DNA from: an uncultured Pirellulales bacterium
Lineage (GTDB): Bacteria > Planctomycetota > Phycisphaerae > Sedimentisphaerales > SM23-30
Assembly (NCBI GenBank): GCA_964580995.1
Contig: CAZOMV010000001.1
Span: forward strand, 42,840 to 106,839
Direction of reading: 5' to 3'
DNA length: 64,000 nt
A program made the position numbers and the translations under genes. This document shows, one piece after another, positions 41,667-50,260 of the stretch (its first letter is position 1; each line of letters begins with the position of its first letter). The notes below the pieces were generated by a model. It saw nothing but the letters and a program-made list of their open reading frames with translations, searched no databases and was not told where the DNA came from.

Positions 41667-43409
41667 TCAATCGGTTTTCGGGCTGTGCTCTTCCACCACC
41701 AGTGCCACGGGGGAAGGAACCGGCTGATTTTGTTCGCGGAGTTTTTCCACCCTTTCCATAGCCTCAAAGAGCAGCAGGCAGGACTGCTCGTAGCTTTTGC
41801 CGGTCAGTTCGCGGATCAGCCGAGTGCCGCGGTCAATCAGTTTCTTGTTGCTGGGCCAGACCCAGACCATCGCGTTGCCCTGAATGCGTCCCATCTTTGC
41901 CATGGTGGCGGTGGAAAGGGTATTCAAGGTGAGCTTGACCGCCAGATGATGCCACAGATTCAGAGGCGAGGGGCGAAGACGGCAGGGAAAATGGAAAAAG
42001 TGCTGGCCATTCGGCGTCAGCGGCTCATCGCCGATAAAAACCGTCAGGTAATGCCGGTAGCCGGACAAAGAAGAGAAAACTGCCTTTTCCAGAAGGCGGT
42101 GGTCATCCGTACCCGCGGCAATGGCAATCAAGGCGGAATCGGGCGCCTCGGTGCAGGAGGAATCCGGCTCCCTGCCGATGGGGAACTTGCAGATTGCCGT
42201 CCTGTCAAGGGCCGGCGGATTGGCCCGCAAATTTTGCGGGGCGTTTAACTGATCATACACCCGGCGGTCCCAGCTCAGCCCCCGCGGCGGTCGGGCAAAA
42301 ACCCGCTCCCAGCTTTGCTCCGTCGGATAGAAGGGGTTTTTCACAAACGCCCAGGAACGCGGCGAGGTATGGTCCTCTTTCGTTCTGAACGGCGGCAGGG
42401 TAAACGTCGGGGAACGTTCGGTGGTATCGGTCAGGACGTCCAGCAGACAGGAATCCGCCAGATAGGTAATCAGCCCGCCCTGCTGATAGATGCCGGCCTC
42501 GAAAGCGATCCATTCTGCCAGATTCTGAACCGAGGTATCGCTGCCCAGATCCCGGAGAAGTTCACTAAAATTTTGCACGGTATCCGCCCCGCCCCGTTCT
42601 GGAAATTCTCCCGCCAGACCGCTGCCGTGCAGAAACTTTAACAAGGCAGTCTCCAATGCCGTTCCAACTACCAGCAGTTCAATCGTAACCGCCTGCATCC
42701 GCGTGGAACCCATCACCGCCATCGGCCCCGTGGCCAGTTCCAGCTTGCGAATCCGGCCTTCTTCCATCACTTCACGGGAACGTTGCACCTGCCGCTCCAG
42801 CAGGTCGGTCGGATTATTATAAACAAAAAAGACCTCCGCCCCCCGTTCCAGAGCTTCCCAGGCGGAGCCGATCACAAAAGGAGTCTCCCCGCCCTCGGTA
42901 ATGGCAACCACCACATCCACTGCCTGTACCCCCGCCTGGGCCAACTGGTATCGTCCGAAGGCCGGAAAATCCTCAAAACCTTCCACGGATTTTATTAACG
43001 CGAAATCGCCCCCCGCCATAACACTGATAACCAAATCCTCCCAACCCGGATCGACCGGCGCGGCTGGCCGGAACTGCTGCCAGAATCGCCGCCAGGCCGC
43101 CTCCAGCAGGATACTCAAGCGGCCGGTAGCGCCGCACCCGGTAAAAAAGATGCGGCGGCGGTTTTCAATGGCTTTTCGCAGGGCGGCAACCAGTTCCTGA
43201 TACACTTCACTCTCGAACACCCGCCGGGCAACCGGGATAATGTCCTCGTCCACGGAGAACAGCATCCGCACCGCTGCCGCCAGGTCACCGGCGGCGGCCC
43301 GGCTGAGCTGCCTGGTTTTGGGGTGCGCGGCCTCCGTCGTCAGGCTTCCCAGCCGGAAGGCCTGTTCCGACTCGACAAACTGTTTGGCTCTTTCTTCTGC
43401 GGTCGTCAT
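41667..43409 (-). CDS. Double-SIS-domain protein of the MurQ/GCKR (glucokinase-regulator-like) family
   Basis: 580 aa, roughly twice the MurQ length. LTTEAAHPKTRQLS and FFTGCGATGRLS motifs in the N-terminal half. Confidence 0.65.
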   Translation of the reverse strand: MTTAEERAKQFVESEQAFRLGSLTTEAAHPKTRQLSRAAAGDLAAAVRMLFSVDEDIIPVARRVFESEVYQELVAALRKAIENRRRIFFTGCGATGRLSILLEAAWRRFWQQFRPAAPVDPGWEDLVISVMAGGDFALIKSVEGFEDFPAFGRYQLAQAGVQAVDVVVAITEGGETPFVIGSAWEALERGAEVFFVYNNPTDLLERQVQRSREVMEEGRIRKLELATGPMAVMGSTRMQAVTIELLVVGTALETALLKFLHGSGLAGEFPERGGADTVQNFSELLRDLGSDTSVQNLAEWIAFEAGIYQQGGLITYLADSCLLDVLTDTTERSPTFTLPPFRTKEDHTSPRSWAFVKNPFYPTEQSWERVFARPPRGLSWDRRVYDQLNAPQNLRANPPALDRTAICKFPIGREPDSSCTEAPDSALIAIAAGTDDHRLLEKAVFSSLSGYRHYLTVFIGDEPLTPNGQHFFHFPCRLRPSPLNLWHHLAVKLTLNTLSTATMAKMGRIQGNAMVWVWPSNKKLIDRGTRLIRELTGKSYEQSCLLLFEAMERVEKLREQNQPVPSPVALVVEEHSPKTD

Positions 43410-47349: not shown

Positions 47350-48018
47350 TTACCTGGTTTTCTGCATTCCGGTAGAATTTCGAAATACTCGAATGCGAGT
47401 AAATGCCAAAGAGAAGATCAGAAGTCCCATGCTGCCCGGTTCCGGAACGATGGAAACGACCAGTTTGTCCATGGCACCCTGATTCCAGCCGATATAGGTC
47501 GGTTCTCCCTGAAAACGGGAATAAAGAGAAACGGTTGCCAGATCGGTAAAACTGCTGTCAAAATAAAACGTTTGAAAATCATTGATGGGGCCGGCTCCGT
47601 CAATGATTCCATCCAGCAGAAAAGTGGCCCGGACCAGTTTGCCATCGGTTTTGGTCCCATCGAATCTTATCTGTAAGATATCTCCGGCAAAAACCGTACT
47701 GTATTCCGACAGATCCACCTGCTCCAATCGGAAAGGGGAACCATCGGTCGTAGTAAAAGTGGCGACATTACTGACATGGGCGGTACCATTGTTCGGCCGA
47801 GCGGTGGATACCTGCGGGTCAGTATGGAAGATCTTGACATAGTCGGGGAATGTCGGCTTTCAGAATATGAAACCCTTCTCCGTCCACGAATTGATGCTTT
47901 TCGATCCGCCCGGTAGCGAAGGAGGATCGAAGGTGATCGTTATTGCGCCGGCTGGATGTGACAGACCGCCGATACCGATCGTAAGAACGACTGCGAACAG
48001 AATCCGATTCATTTTCAT
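47350..48018 (-). pseudogene. PEP-CTERM-anchored secreted protein interrupted by one in-frame TGA (47862-47860)
   Basis: The signal peptide MKMNRILFAVVLTIGIGGLSHPAGA (ATG at 48018, AAGGAG SD) and the C-terminal VPEPGSMGLLIFSLAFTRIR sorting signal are in the same frame. The 44 codons between the TGA and the track's next start are open. Confidence 0.7.
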
Positions 48019-48034
48019 GTCTCCTTTGGCTGAT

Positions 48035-48080
48035 AAAAAACCCGGCGCAGAACAAGACCCTCTCGCTCTCTCACCGGGTT
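48035..48080 (-). terminator. Leader hairpin plus U-tract (attenuator-like), copy A
   Basis: In minus sense: AACCCGGTGAGAGAG-13nt-TTCTGCGCCGGGTTTTTT. It sits between the promoter (48111-48139) and the SD/ATG of the PEP-CTERM gene. Confidence 0.55.
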
Positions 48081-48110
48081 TCATTTCTCAGTAATTCCCT
48101 TTATCCGGTT

Positions 48111-48139
48111 ACTGTATCCGAAACGGAAAAGGATGTCAA
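48111..48139 (-). promoter_or_regulatory. Candidate sigma70 promoter (TTGACA-17-TACAGT)
   Basis: On the minus strand, TTGACA lies at 48139-48134 and TACAGT at 48116-48111. Confidence 0.55.
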
Positions 48140-48227
48140 GATAATTTTTTGGCCCCTTCTGCCTCGCCAGGCCGGTAACGGTGCCAAACAGCGAGAAAAA
48201 AACAGGCAAAAAAATTGAATTTACTGA

Positions 48228-48256
48228 TTGACGATTGGATCGGTTTTTGGTATTCT
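48228..48256 (+). promoter_or_regulatory. Candidate sigma70 promoter (TTGACG-17-TATTCT)
   Basis: TTGACG at 48228-48233 and TATTCT at 48251-48256. Confidence 0.5.
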
Positions 48257-48310
48257 ATTTTTAGTCTGTGGCGGGTAGTAACCACAGAGAGGATTTTCGC
48301 TTAACAACAG

Positions 48311-48356
48311 AACCCGGTGAGAGAGACAGGATGTCTTTCTGCGCCGGGTTTCTTAT
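48311..48356 (+). terminator. Leader hairpin plus U-rich tract (attenuator-like), copy B
   Basis: AACCCGGTGAGAGAG-11nt-TTCTGCGCCGGGTTTCTTAT. Both 15-nt arms are identical to copy A and the loop differs. Confidence 0.5.
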
Positions 48357-48502
48357 TTGCCCAGTGGGCAGAAGGAAGGAAAAATGAAAATCACATGAAT
48401 AATGATCTGTTTTTTACAAGTCCGAAGTTGTCTGGTCTGCTTATCTTATTTTGATTTTTGCATAAATTCTTATAGGTCGATAACGTAGAGGAGAAACTAA
48501 AT

Positions 48503-49636
48503 ATGAAATATCCAATAGTAAAGATATGCTTGCTATTCAGTTTGTTATCCGCTGATTTGTGTTATTCTTATGAGATCATCAACCTTACACAAGATTTGTC
48601 TTCCTACAATCGGAATCCAAAGTCAGACGGAAATATGGTCGCCTGGGAAACGAATTCGGGTATTTATTTCTATAATGGAAATTCCAGTCAATGCATCAGC
48701 AGCTTTTTTAGTTATTTGGGCGGCATAAGTGGCGATCATGTTGCTTTTAATAGTGGCAGTTCGTGGTCTTCTAATCCATATCACTATTACAATGGAACCA
48801 CAAGCCCATTGTTGGTTGACAGTTTGCACCATTCTCCGCCAGATGTTTGCGGGGATCTTGTTGCCTGGCAAGGAAAAGGCACTTCAGCGCAAACGGATTA
48901 TGAAGTATTAATGTTCGATGGCCAGCAGGTAAAGCAATTAACCAATGATAATTATGAGGACTTTCATGTAAGGGTAGGCGATGGGATCATCACATGGACA
49001 AAAAGAGTTCCCCAGCCCAGCGGATTTTCAAAAAGAATACTTTACAAATACGATGTCGCTTCCGATACCACGGAAGTATTAGGGGAAGGATTTCTGAAAA
49101 TTGATGGACGAACTTGTGCCTGGGGAGAAGGATCTACTATCCAAGTCAATGATGACTCAGGAACATGGCAACTTACAGAATCACCTATTCCCAGCATGCA
49201 TTTAAACATGTCGGTCATTGACATTTCTGGTTCCTATATAGCATGGGCCGAAAATAATATGTTTGACGACACTACCTCTATCAAAATTTATGATGGCCAA
49301 GAAATACATATTTTTATGGAAAATATAAATTTGGATAAGATTACAGCGTGTCGCGTTGATAATGGAAAAATAGCCTGGATTGATAACGATTCTTCCAGTT
49401 TATTCTTTCAAGATCTTGCAACCGGCTATACAGAGCTGATAGCCTCTGGAGATATGATGAGTTTAAATTTTAGTGATAACAATATTGTTTGGGAGCAACA
49501 TCAAAATAATAGATACGATATCATGATGGTGACCATCCCCGAACCCGCTACCCTTTCCCTACTTGCTTTTGGAACGATGCTGGCAACTGGAAGGAGAAGA
49601 ATCAGGATAATGAGATCCAATAACGGACTCTTGTAA
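48503..49636 (+). CDS. PEP-CTERM-anchored secreted protein (unknown beta-rich ectodomain)
   Basis: Signal peptide MKYPIVKICLLFSLLSADLCYS. C-terminal IPEPATLSLLAFGTMLATGRRR. AT-rich gene. Confidence 0.8.
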   Translation: MKYPIVKICLLFSLLSADLCYSYEIINLTQDLSSYNRNPKSDGNMVAWETNSGIYFYNGNSSQCISSFFSYLGGISGDHVAFNSGSSWSSNPYHYYNGTTSPLLVDSLHHSPPDVCGDLVAWQGKGTSAQTDYEVLMFDGQQVKQLTNDNYEDFHVRVGDGIITWTKRVPQPSGFSKRILYKYDVASDTTEVLGEGFLKIDGRTCAWGEGSTIQVNDDSGTWQLTESPIPSMHLNMSVIDISGSYIAWAENNMFDDTTSIKIYDGQEIHIFMENINLDKITACRVDNGKIAWIDNDSSSLFFQDLATGYTELIASGDMMSLNFSDNNIVWEQHQNNRYDIMMVTIPEPATLSLLAFGTMLATGRRRIRIMRSNNGLL

Positions 49637-49723
49637 TTCATAACTCGTAACTCGTAATTTCTTCCGGTAATTCATAATTTCTTCTTTCACCATGAAGGAT
49701 TCGTATTACAATAATACCTTGCT

Positions 49724-50260
49724 GTGGAAAGGTTCTTTAATATGGATCTACATACTATCTTTGAAACCAAACGACTTATTTTACGCCCCATGAATAGGAA
49801 CGATGCGAAAGACCTTTTTTCTTATTTGAATGATCCGGAAGTAATGCGATTCGAAAATTCCGGCGTTTTGACATATACACAGATAAAAACCTTTCTAGAG
49901 GAAAAACAAAAGAAGATTATGCAGGATATGCTCCCTCTTGGCACAAGAGCGGTAGTCCTTAAAGAAAGTGGAAATATGATAGGTGAATGCACCTTACATC
50001 ATCTTAAATATGTGGAGGGGCATCCTGTGGAGATTTCGTATAAAATTAACCGCCATTACTGGAATAATGGCTATGCCACGGAAGCGGCAAAATGCCTGAT
50101 GGATCACGGTTATAAGGATCTAAAAATATCTGAAATGGTAGCGGCTATTCATCCTTTAAATTTGGCCTCCATGAGAGTAGCAGAGAAATTAGGATTTACC
50201 TATACGCGTGATATTGAATGGCCCCAGCAAGGGATGGTAAGATTATATTCTTGGGAATAA
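49724..50260 (+). CDS. GNAT N-acetyltransferase (RimJ/RimL-like)
   Basis: TKRLILRPMNRNDAKDLFSY...YWNNGYATEAAK. Likely ATG at 49742. Confidence 0.8.
   Translation: MERFFNMDLHTIFETKRLILRPMNRNDAKDLFSYLNDPEVMRFENSGVLTYTQIKTFLEEKQKKIMQDMLPLGTRAVVLKESGNMIGECTLHHLKYVEGHPVEISYKINRHYWNNGYATEAAKCLMDHGYKDLKISEMVAAIHPLNLASMRVAEKLGFTYTRDIEWPQQGMVRLYSWE

Follow-up and report, generated by a model that had tools for sequence, protein, structure and literature searches.

Introduction

PEP-CTERM/exosortase sorting is widespread in environmental bacteria. To our knowledge, regulation of PEP-CTERM genes has been described only in Proteobacteria, through a sigma-54 site and PrsK/PrsR, and we know of almost no described riboregulation in Planctomycetota. 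The proteobacterial cis-site consists of an activator box and a sigma-54 -24/-12 promoter under the PrsK/PrsR/PrsT system, and further regulatory motifs outside Proteobacteria were said to remain to be found (Haft et al. 2006, PMC1569441). Here, a non-coding element is described from a 64,000-nt stretch of an uncultured Pirellulales bacterium of the order Sedimentisphaerales (positions 42,840 to 106,839 of contig CAZOMV010000001.1, assembly GCA_964580995.1; hereafter the window, meaning this stretch at its full length). Two copies of a hairpin, P1, lie back to back in the leaders of two divergent PEP-CTERM genes, gene A and gene B, and are members of a conserved, lineage-specific family of structured 5'-leader RNAs that is absent from Rfam. 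Like the proteobacterial site, the element is conserved, non-coding and located in long regions upstream of mostly single-gene PEP-CTERM operons, and it marks part of the cargo. That site is a DNA site, whereas the present element is a hairpin predicted to be transcribed from a sigma-70-type promoter lying upstream of it. The two are unlike in sequence, and the element is confined to a single Sedimentisphaerales family and, among the cargo genes, to about 10%.

Processive antitermination is known from polysaccharide and surface-structure loci, examples being RfaH/ops, LoaP with its leader hairpin, UpxY of Bacteroides and the EAR RNA of Bacillus. The signals in those leaders permit read-through of terminators at surface-polymer loci, and the genome studied here likewise has a specialised NusG paralogue. 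However, those systems act on long operons and have a recruitment signal separate from the terminators, whereas here the genes are single and short and it is the terminator-like hairpin that is conserved as the signal.

Two further systems are close. A survey of premature terminators covers promoter-proximal intrinsic terminators, or attenuators, in bacterial 5' leaders (PMC2965389). Like these attenuators, the element combines a GC-based hairpin with a U-tract between promoter and ribosome-binding site (RBS) and recurs before functionally related genes. Unlike known attenuators, it was found to hold no cis-acting sensor (aptamer, leader peptide, T-box, or RAT- or ANTAR-type hairpin), and its conserved part is the predicted terminator stem itself, with its primary sequence and a fixed internal loop. 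The leader terminator is a known kind of element, and the present one appears to fit its structural criteria without a known sensor class. For the cip-cel operon of Ruminiclostridium cellulolyticum, selective RNA processing and stabilisation stem-loops have been described (PMC10311766). The stem-loops lie between genes for secreted surface-complex proteins, an arrangement that a tandem array on contig C22 of the present genome resembles, but most copies of the element differ from them in lying in monocistronic leaders, in carrying a U-tract and in being conserved in sequence.

A conserved, lineage-specific leader RNA family

The window contains exactly two pairs of the arms AACCCGGTGAGAGAG (15 nt) and TTCTGCGCCGGGTT (14 nt): copy A on the minus strand at 48039-48080, and copy B on the plus strand at 48311-48350. 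Each hairpin is oriented in the sense of the gene that it faces. The chance expectation is zero (100 dinucleotide shuffles), and the mirror-image arms on which the original prediction was built are confirmed. In the source study, three independent sets of contigs have this sequence without change.

The source genome is a metagenome-assembled genome (MAG) from rock metagenomes, comprising 5.48 Mb in 174 contigs, and its RuvB relatives assign it to Planctomycetota, Phycisphaerae, Sedimentisphaerales. Copies were sought with a three-copy profile and then with two covariance models, R1 and R2, the latter of 32 sequences. Nine intact copies are present in the source genome (R1), and about 29 further copies were found with R2 in 10 of the 24 other genomes of the family; the search for additional copies that the original prediction had proposed was thus productive. 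Counting the source genome, the element occurs in 11 of 25 same-family genomes and in 9 of 18 genera, and in none of 176 other Sedimentisphaerales genomes (R2, E <= 1e-4). An exact-pattern scan of one genome per species (185,579 species) returned three stretches, assigned to the same-family genomes G009, G001 and G021. With a looser pattern, JGI metagenomes yielded 52 loci, of which 46 match R2, with 41 distinct sequences. No family in Rfam 15 matched the window piece (E up to 10) or eight other copies (E up to 1), and permissive thresholds gave chance-level matches to eukaryotic and viral families only.

In most homologous copies, the leader unit begins with a near-consensus promoter (TTGACN-17/18-TAnnnT) 55-75 nt upstream of the hairpin; transcription start sites were inferred from these predicted promoters. 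A 5'-proximal hairpin, P0, begins a few nucleotides past the -10 box in most copies. It differs in sequence from copy to copy (CUGUGG/CCACAG, GUGCAG/CUGCAC, CCGAGG/CCUUGG, CUGAAGC/GCUUCAG and others) and is often followed by a GGGA- or GGAGG-like string. An A/U-rich linker of 15-25 nt, which ends approximately in AAAWRUWUA and is not conserved between genera, leads to P1 at about +45 to +65 of the predicted transcript. The base of P1 is (A)ACCSRG-YG paired with CG-CYGGKU, the internal loop (AG on the 5' side, G on the 3' side) is conserved, the upper stem is (GA)n against (UC)n, and the tip varies from a 3-nt loop to a nested hairpin of about 40 nt. A tract of U6-8, usually UUUUUUUAU, comes right after P1. 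About half of the copies then have a GC hairpin, P2, with compensating changes between copies (GCCC/GGGC, GCUC/GAGC, GCCU/AGGC, GCCG/CGGC); it is absent from the rest, including copy A. A long RBS (GAAAGGUKGUGG or AAGGAG) and an AUG are located 20-40 nt past the U-tract.

That the P1 stem is a selected RNA structure, as originally predicted, is supported by covariation among 77 distinct homologues aligned to the covariance model. In this alignment, which is fitted to the model, 84.6% of the paired cells hold standard pairs, versus 78.4% in shuffles and 49-61% when the partner is slid, and 102 cells are changed on both sides versus 49.6 in shuffles, a value that none of 500 shuffles reached. 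For instance, pair 16-91 is GC in 49 sequences, AU in 24, GU in 2 and unpaired in 2, and pair 11-94 is CG in 40, AU in 16, GU in 4, GC in 2 and UA in 1. The 32 sequences from whole genomes alone give the same picture. Similarly, the 5' partner of the Y position was left free by the metagenome search pattern and yet follows that position (CCAG/CTGG, CCGG/CCGG) in all but 2-3 metagenome sequences. An unconstrained duplication, which had been named as a possible source of the resemblance, is contradicted as its sole cause by the further copies, with their stem-preserving changes in place of random decay. Additionally, the primary sequence of the P1 arms is conserved far beyond the needs of pairing, while P0, linker, tip and promoter spacers are unalignable between genera, which suggests that something reads the sequence, either a factor or an alternative pairing.

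The source genome also holds variant copies. The 5' arm is kept and the 3' arm lost at C48:22892, near 18900 on C44 and in the middle spacer of the three-gene array on C22. Two identical P1 variants without a U-tract, at C30:30289 (+) and C167:3732 (-), have a covarying base (CCCGCGG/GCGGG). In the C22 array, tandem PEP-CTERM genes are separated by P1 copies that have no promoter to themselves.

One further locus (L137, in G021:C172; roughly positions 170-330 when reversed) combines a promoter with an intact P1, and directly behind P1 come the final ~15 codons of a PEP-CTERM tail (LLGLGGLTLLRRRRK*). The main part of this cargo gene has apparently been lost by deletion, and an intact PEP-CTERM gene lies further downstream.

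The leader pair in the window

A promoter scan of 47800-48600 found exactly two sites, both of sigma-70 type and the same back-to-back pair that had been proposed (Table 1). Copy A is followed by six T, AAGGAG and then ATGAAAATG, and copy B by TCTTATTT, the palindrome TGCCCAgTGGGCA and then AAGGAAGGAAAAATG; together with the 4-codon frame and the start of gene B, these downstream features are all as first described. Both copies fold as hairpins of 19-20 bp. In copy A, P1 has a base of 11 bp, then the AG/G internal loop, an upper stem of 9 bp and a GGG loop; P1 of copy B has 18 pairs, one bulged G and a GGA loop. The loops of 13 and 11 nt in the original prediction do differ in length, but they are mostly paired and the true loops are 3 nt. 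The apical pairs of the two copies differ by compensating changes (CGAGA/UCUUG versus ACA/UGU). Copy A scores 75.3 bits with R1 and 66.2 bits with R2, and copy B 67.9 and 62.2 bits, respectively; the leader pieces fold at -34.2 kcal/mol (A; z -4.0) and -43.6 kcal/mol (B; z -5.6). All parts of the leader unit are present in leader B, and leader A is without P0 and P2.

Table 1. Features of the divergent leaders and their genes (window positions).
Feature	Position	Strand	Basis or detail
Gene A: signal peptide and PEP-CTERM tail, one in-frame TGA	47350..48018	-	TGA at 47860-47862
Shine-Dalgarno (SD) sequence AAGGAG (48021-48026) and ATG (48016-48018) of gene A	48016..48026	-	sequence
U-tract of copy A, six T, immediately after P1	48035..48040	-	sequence
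P1 of copy A: lower stem AAACCCGGUG/CGCCGGGUUU, upper stem AGAGCGAGA/UCUUGUUCU	48039..48081	-	folding
Promoter of copy A, TTGACA-17-TACAGT	48111..48139	-	10/12 consensus matches (promoter scan)
Motif GGTGCCAAACAGCG between the divergent promoters	48180..48193	+	shared with upstream regions of 3-4 other leader copies
Promoter of copy B, TTGACG-17-TATTCT, TG ahead of -10	48228..48256	+	promoter scan
P0 of leader B, 5'-proximal hairpin CUGUGG-N10-CCACAG, then AGAGGAUUUU	48266..48287	+	folding
P1 of copy B: GAACCCGGUG/CGCCGGGUU(U), upper stem AGAGAGACA/UGUCUUUCU	48310..48350	+	folding
U-tract of copy B, interrupted, UUUCUUAUUU	48349..48358	+	sequence; 6 U in 8
P2 of leader B, small GC hairpin UGCCC-AGU-GGGCA between U-tract and RBS	48358..48370	+	folding
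RBS GAAGGAAGGAAAAA and apparent relic start ATGAAAATCACATGA behind leader B	48371..48398	+	sequence alignment
4-codon frame after copy B	48384-48398	+	sequence
Gene B: 377-aa PEP-CTERM protein, own RBS	48503..49636	+	PF07589 20.5 bits (cut-off 20.7)

The motif GGTGCCAAACAGCG recurs 25-70 nt upstream of the -35 box in two to three leader copies on C41 and is diverged on C25. It may be a common upstream site or may merely reflect shared ancestry of the promoter cassettes. A role as general operator was rejected, there being 4-5 intergenic copies only, all in paralogous cassettes.

Genes downstream of the element

All downstream products have signal peptides. A PEP-CTERM gene follows 5 of the 9 intact copies in the source genome, and the same is true for 17 of 27 complete open reading frames (ORFs) in the relatives and 20 of 25 on the metagenome contigs. 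The five in the source genome comprise gene A, gene B, one gene on C43 and two in the C22 array; their products are beta-propeller/NHL-like, with PF07589 scores at or near the cut-off. About 58 PEP-CTERM ORFs were counted there, or some 1.3% of about 4,400 genes (a roughly estimated total), and against this background a binomial p near 1e-7 is estimated for 5 of 9. The element is therefore strongly enriched before PEP-CTERM genes, that is, exosortase cargo. The link to exosortase cargo in the original prediction stands in this sense, but not as specificity: proteins with FGE-sulfatase domains and dockerin-like N-termini are encoded behind the intact copies on C5 and C25, the decayed copy on C48 and the U-tract-less copy on C30, and only about a tenth of the PEP-CTERM genes of the genome carry the element. 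One copy precedes the gene for a repeat protein of >1,300 aa, and one that for a secreted protein of 128 aa.

A second, unrelated conserved leader is found before about 17 other PEP-CTERM genes of the source genome, which form a paralogous family of ~240-aa proteins (loci on C9, C14, C24 (three), C59, C69, C74, C85, C86, C106, C119 and C141, among others). This leader comprises a GC hairpin (CCAGCCCGG..CCGGGCTGG) as well as a full anti-16S match (GAAAGGAGGTGATG) some 110 nt ahead of the start; further 3' come CTTTATGTGTGTG and a hairpin (TTGACAAAGCGAGGAGCTTGTCAA) directly before GGAGGAA-ATGAAAATGAAGAAA. It may be a leader of the mRNA-stabiliser type.

A candidate terminator with proposed read-through by a trans-acting factor

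P1 and the U-tract together have the shape of an intrinsic terminator, in that a stable GC-based hairpin (median 16 pairs, -23.6 kcal/mol) directly adjoins a U-rich tract, with at least 5 U among the next 8 nt in 70 of 73 distinct copies. As in an attenuator, this structure lies between the predicted start site and the RBS. In the source genome, hairpins of this strength followed by U7 are 7-12 times commoner in the 110 nt downstream of long ORFs than in the ORFs themselves (73 versus 10; 48 versus 4), suggesting that they are placed where termination is wanted. Additionally, an RBS and an intact gene still follow the variants that lack the 3' arm (C48, C44, middle C22) or the U-tract (C30, C167), which fits a negative element. 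The original proposal of an attenuator or riboswitch platform is borne out as regards a terminator shape between promoter and RBS, but a riboswitch platform is unlikely, given that no conserved aptamer was found.

We would give roughly an even chance to the reading that P1 and the U-tract form a promoter-proximal intrinsic terminator which is read through by means of a trans-acting factor. The transcript would start at a strong sigma-70-type promoter and run through the variable P0 and the A/U-rich linker into P1. P1 and the U-tract would then stop most transcripts before the gene, and expression would need read-through. A factor acting in trans is suggested by the lack of a conserved cis alternative fold, aptamer or leader peptide in the leader copies, together with the conserved stem sequence. 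Such a factor could recognise the emerging purine-rich 5' arm or the internal loop, or could make RNA polymerase resistant to termination. In tandem arrays, a P1 unit between cargo genes might grade the expression of the downstream copies. A more specific version, in which P1 is the RNA operator of a dedicated antitermination or RNA-binding regulator that reads the 5' arm and the AG/G loop and thereby switches a secreted-protein regulon, is tentative and, on balance, somewhat improbable. Whereas the family, its structure, its location and its link to the gene class are observed, we infer the function of the element from its anatomy alone, and this applies to termination, regulation and the factor alike.

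Folding of the leader copies gave no conserved alternative pairing with either P1 arm. A conserved aptamer was not found upstream of P1 in the homologous leaders, where P0 and linker vary in sequence and length, and neither was a conserved leader ORF: start codons before P1 are not conserved and the frames differ between copies. Tip lengths that differ by non-multiples of three (13 versus 11 nt in the window) also argue against a leader peptide. No tandem hexaloop (ANTAR) or RAT hairpins were seen in the leaders, and a genome search for mimics of either arm, as a partner in trans, returned further P1 variants and noise only. A cis-acting antiterminator in which the 3' side of P0 (CAGAGAGG) pairs with the 3' arm is possible in copy B only and fails in other copies. 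Several further identities were considered and rejected. Frames through P1 differ between copies, contrary to a coding function; arm spacing ranges from 3 to ~40 nt, contrary to a double-stranded DNA operator; and no -35 box can be placed for a promoter inside or after P1, with only 20-40 nt before the start codon. The element is not a repetitive extragenic palindrome (REP) or miniature inverted-repeat transposable element (MITE), as there are about 10 copies per genome, each aimed at a gene start 20-40 nt on, with unrepeated flanks. An integron attC site was likewise rejected: the ends are ..TGAACCCGG / CCGGGTTTTTT, GTT is followed by T and not purines, and the units have their own promoters. 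The sigma-54 PEP-CTERM site was rejected in view of the -35/-10 promoters; the sole TGGCAC-like string (reverse of 48180-48193) is without TTGC at the right spacing.

Candidate factors were compared with the distribution of the element. The NusG paralogue is present in 24 of the 25 family genomes, P1-negative ones included (the element being in 11 of 25), and CsrA is likewise present in 24 of 25, P1-negative ones included. A second CsrA paralogue occurs only in G000, G002, G016 and G021, all of which are P1-positive (4 of 11 versus 0 of 14 genomes), and is a weak lead as a candidate regulator. Hfq was not detected by tblastn with the E. coli protein, which is a weak negative.

In the source genome, the NusG paralogue (C35:372-920 (-), 182 aa) is divergent from a gene resembling a polyprenyl-phosphate (priming) sugar transferase and is plausibly an RfaH/UpxY-like regulator of a polysaccharide locus. 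The second, diverged CsrA gene (C5:89032-89253 (-)) adjoins a sigma-70-family gene and genes for DUF2934-like small proteins.

A number of points weigh against a terminator read through in trans. No factor has a phyletic pattern that matches the element in the 25 genomes. ANTAR gave no matches in these genomes, but none in control genomes either, and CAT_RBD was not searched for. The conserved P1 sequence could have other causes, and for the parts fixed by the metagenome pattern (GAGAGAG, TCTGCGCYGG, TTTTT) conservation is not demonstrable from the metagenome set. A simple terminator scan calls neither window copy; the miss is attributed to its rules, under which the internal loop is disallowed and the tail is counted only from where the A-U-extended stem ends. 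The U-tract of copy B is interrupted, and that of the C22:52666 copy is poor (UUGGUUAU). Strong canonical terminators follow only about 2-3% of the long ORFs in the genome, and given this figure the reliance of the organism on intrinsic termination is uncertain. Finally, the sequencing runs that hold the stretch are DNA only (rock and other metagenomes), no RNA runs having been found, and no cultured relatives carrying the element were found, the RuvB relatives of the source genome all being MAGs.

Alternative explanations

It is conceivable, though unlikely, that P1 and P2 are RNA processing or stability elements that set transcript stoichiometry, with the upstream RNA guarded at its 3' end by P1 and, once the A/U-rich spacer has been cleaved, the cargo mRNA guarded at its 5' end by P2 (or P1). 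The promoterless P1 copies between tandem PEP-CTERM genes in the C22 array would suit such a role, as would the P2 hairpin just ahead of the RBS in about half of the copies and the general occurrence of 5' hairpins (P0), and comparable stem-loops are described for the cip-cel operon (PMC10311766). However, most copies are monocistronic and lie directly behind a promoter, with nothing upstream for a 3'-end protector to act on; a pure stabiliser would not need the conserved U-tract or a conserved primary sequence, and P2 is absent in half of the family. We consider it quite improbable that promoter, P0, linker and P1 constitute a small RNA (sRNA) gene, whose abundant, trans-acting product of ~100 nt would end at P1 and leave the cargo to incidental read-through. 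The layout (strong promoter, 5' hairpin, A/U-rich single strand, terminator with U tail) is that of a classical base-pairing sRNA, and there are several copies per genome. Yet the single-stranded linker, where the seed site would be expected, is not conserved between genera, the 20-40 nt between P1 and the start codon leave no space for a second promoter, which makes the gene reliant on that one transcript, every unit points toward a secreted-protein gene, and the Hfq search, for what so weak a negative is worth, was negative. A translational device is more improbable still. In this case the anti-SD-like 3' arm (UUUCUCUGCGCC) would pair with either the SD-like 5' arm or the RBS (GCAGAAAGG / YUGGUG). 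In silico blocking of the 5' arm does let the 3' arm and U-tract pair with the RBS region of several copies (9 bp in copy B, UCUUUCUGC with GCAGAAGGA; also L015, L007 and L027), and with P1 formed the RBS is free in minimum-free-energy folds. But purine-rich RBSs and pyrimidine-rich arms pair trivially, no covariation between 3' arm and RBS is demonstrable, and P1 is very stable and forms first during transcription; the logic would also be odd, with termination absent yet the RBS masked, and the U-tract is left unexplained.

If the leaders were functionless relics, copied as promoter-leader cassettes with duplicating cargo genes and with stems that decay slowly from pairing alone, then the window pair would be a recent local inverted duplication, and copies A and B are indeed mutually closest relatives with identical arms. 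Several copies are decayed, an in-frame stop interrupts gene A, and leader B appears to have had its original gene replaced. This explanation is nevertheless very unlikely: the element is kept across 9 genera with RuvB 72-80% identical (loci L041-L048, taken as family members), P1, U-tract and position persist where flanks, P0 and tips are no longer recognisably similar, and compensatory changes accompany a strict orientation and gene class. Hardly any probability attaches to a riboswitch in which P0 and linker would be a small aptamer and P1 the expression platform. The general layout is that of a transcriptional riboswitch, and small aptamers exist, e.g., preQ1-I and guanidine-III. However, neither the sequence nor the loop and length of P0 are constant, and some copies have no P0 at all; the linker, of 15-25 nt, is unconserved; the folded copies share no alternative pairing that involves either P1 arm; and there is no Rfam match.

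History of the window pair

The common arms of copies A and B differ from the genome consensus (GAGYAGAGAGAG...UUUCUCUG), and the pair thus appears to be a local inverted duplication of one cassette, whose tips have since diverged by compensating changes. In the source study, the contigs of three sequencing runs agree on the in-frame TGA of gene A, which is therefore not a one-off assembly error; gene A may be a pseudogene or subject to recoding. Behind leader B, the relic start region aligns with ATGAAAATGAAT of copy A and with ATGAAAGG of the C22 copy. Directly after this relic start begins an AT-rich island (48390-50260; GC 0.34-0.44 versus 0.49-0.58 in the flanks), which contains gene B and a GNAT-like gene (49724-50260). 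It looks as though the original cargo gene behind leader B was replaced by acquired DNA. The 4-codon ORF, for which both a relic and a leader peptide had been suggested, would then be the relic of the original start codon and not a conserved leader ORF. Neither window leader now appears to precede an intact original gene.

Implications

The element provides a new and testable RNA-level cis element for part of the PEP-CTERM cargo in Planctomycetota, and the 77-sequence covariance model can be used for RNA family libraries and for leader annotation. Its reach is narrow, being confined to one uncultured family. If P1 is the RNA operator of a regulator, then the element would be an RNA-level counterpart of the proteobacterial control of PEP-CTERM genes by PrsK/PrsR and sigma-54, and would allow exosortase cargo and other secreted surface proteins to be switched on in one step.

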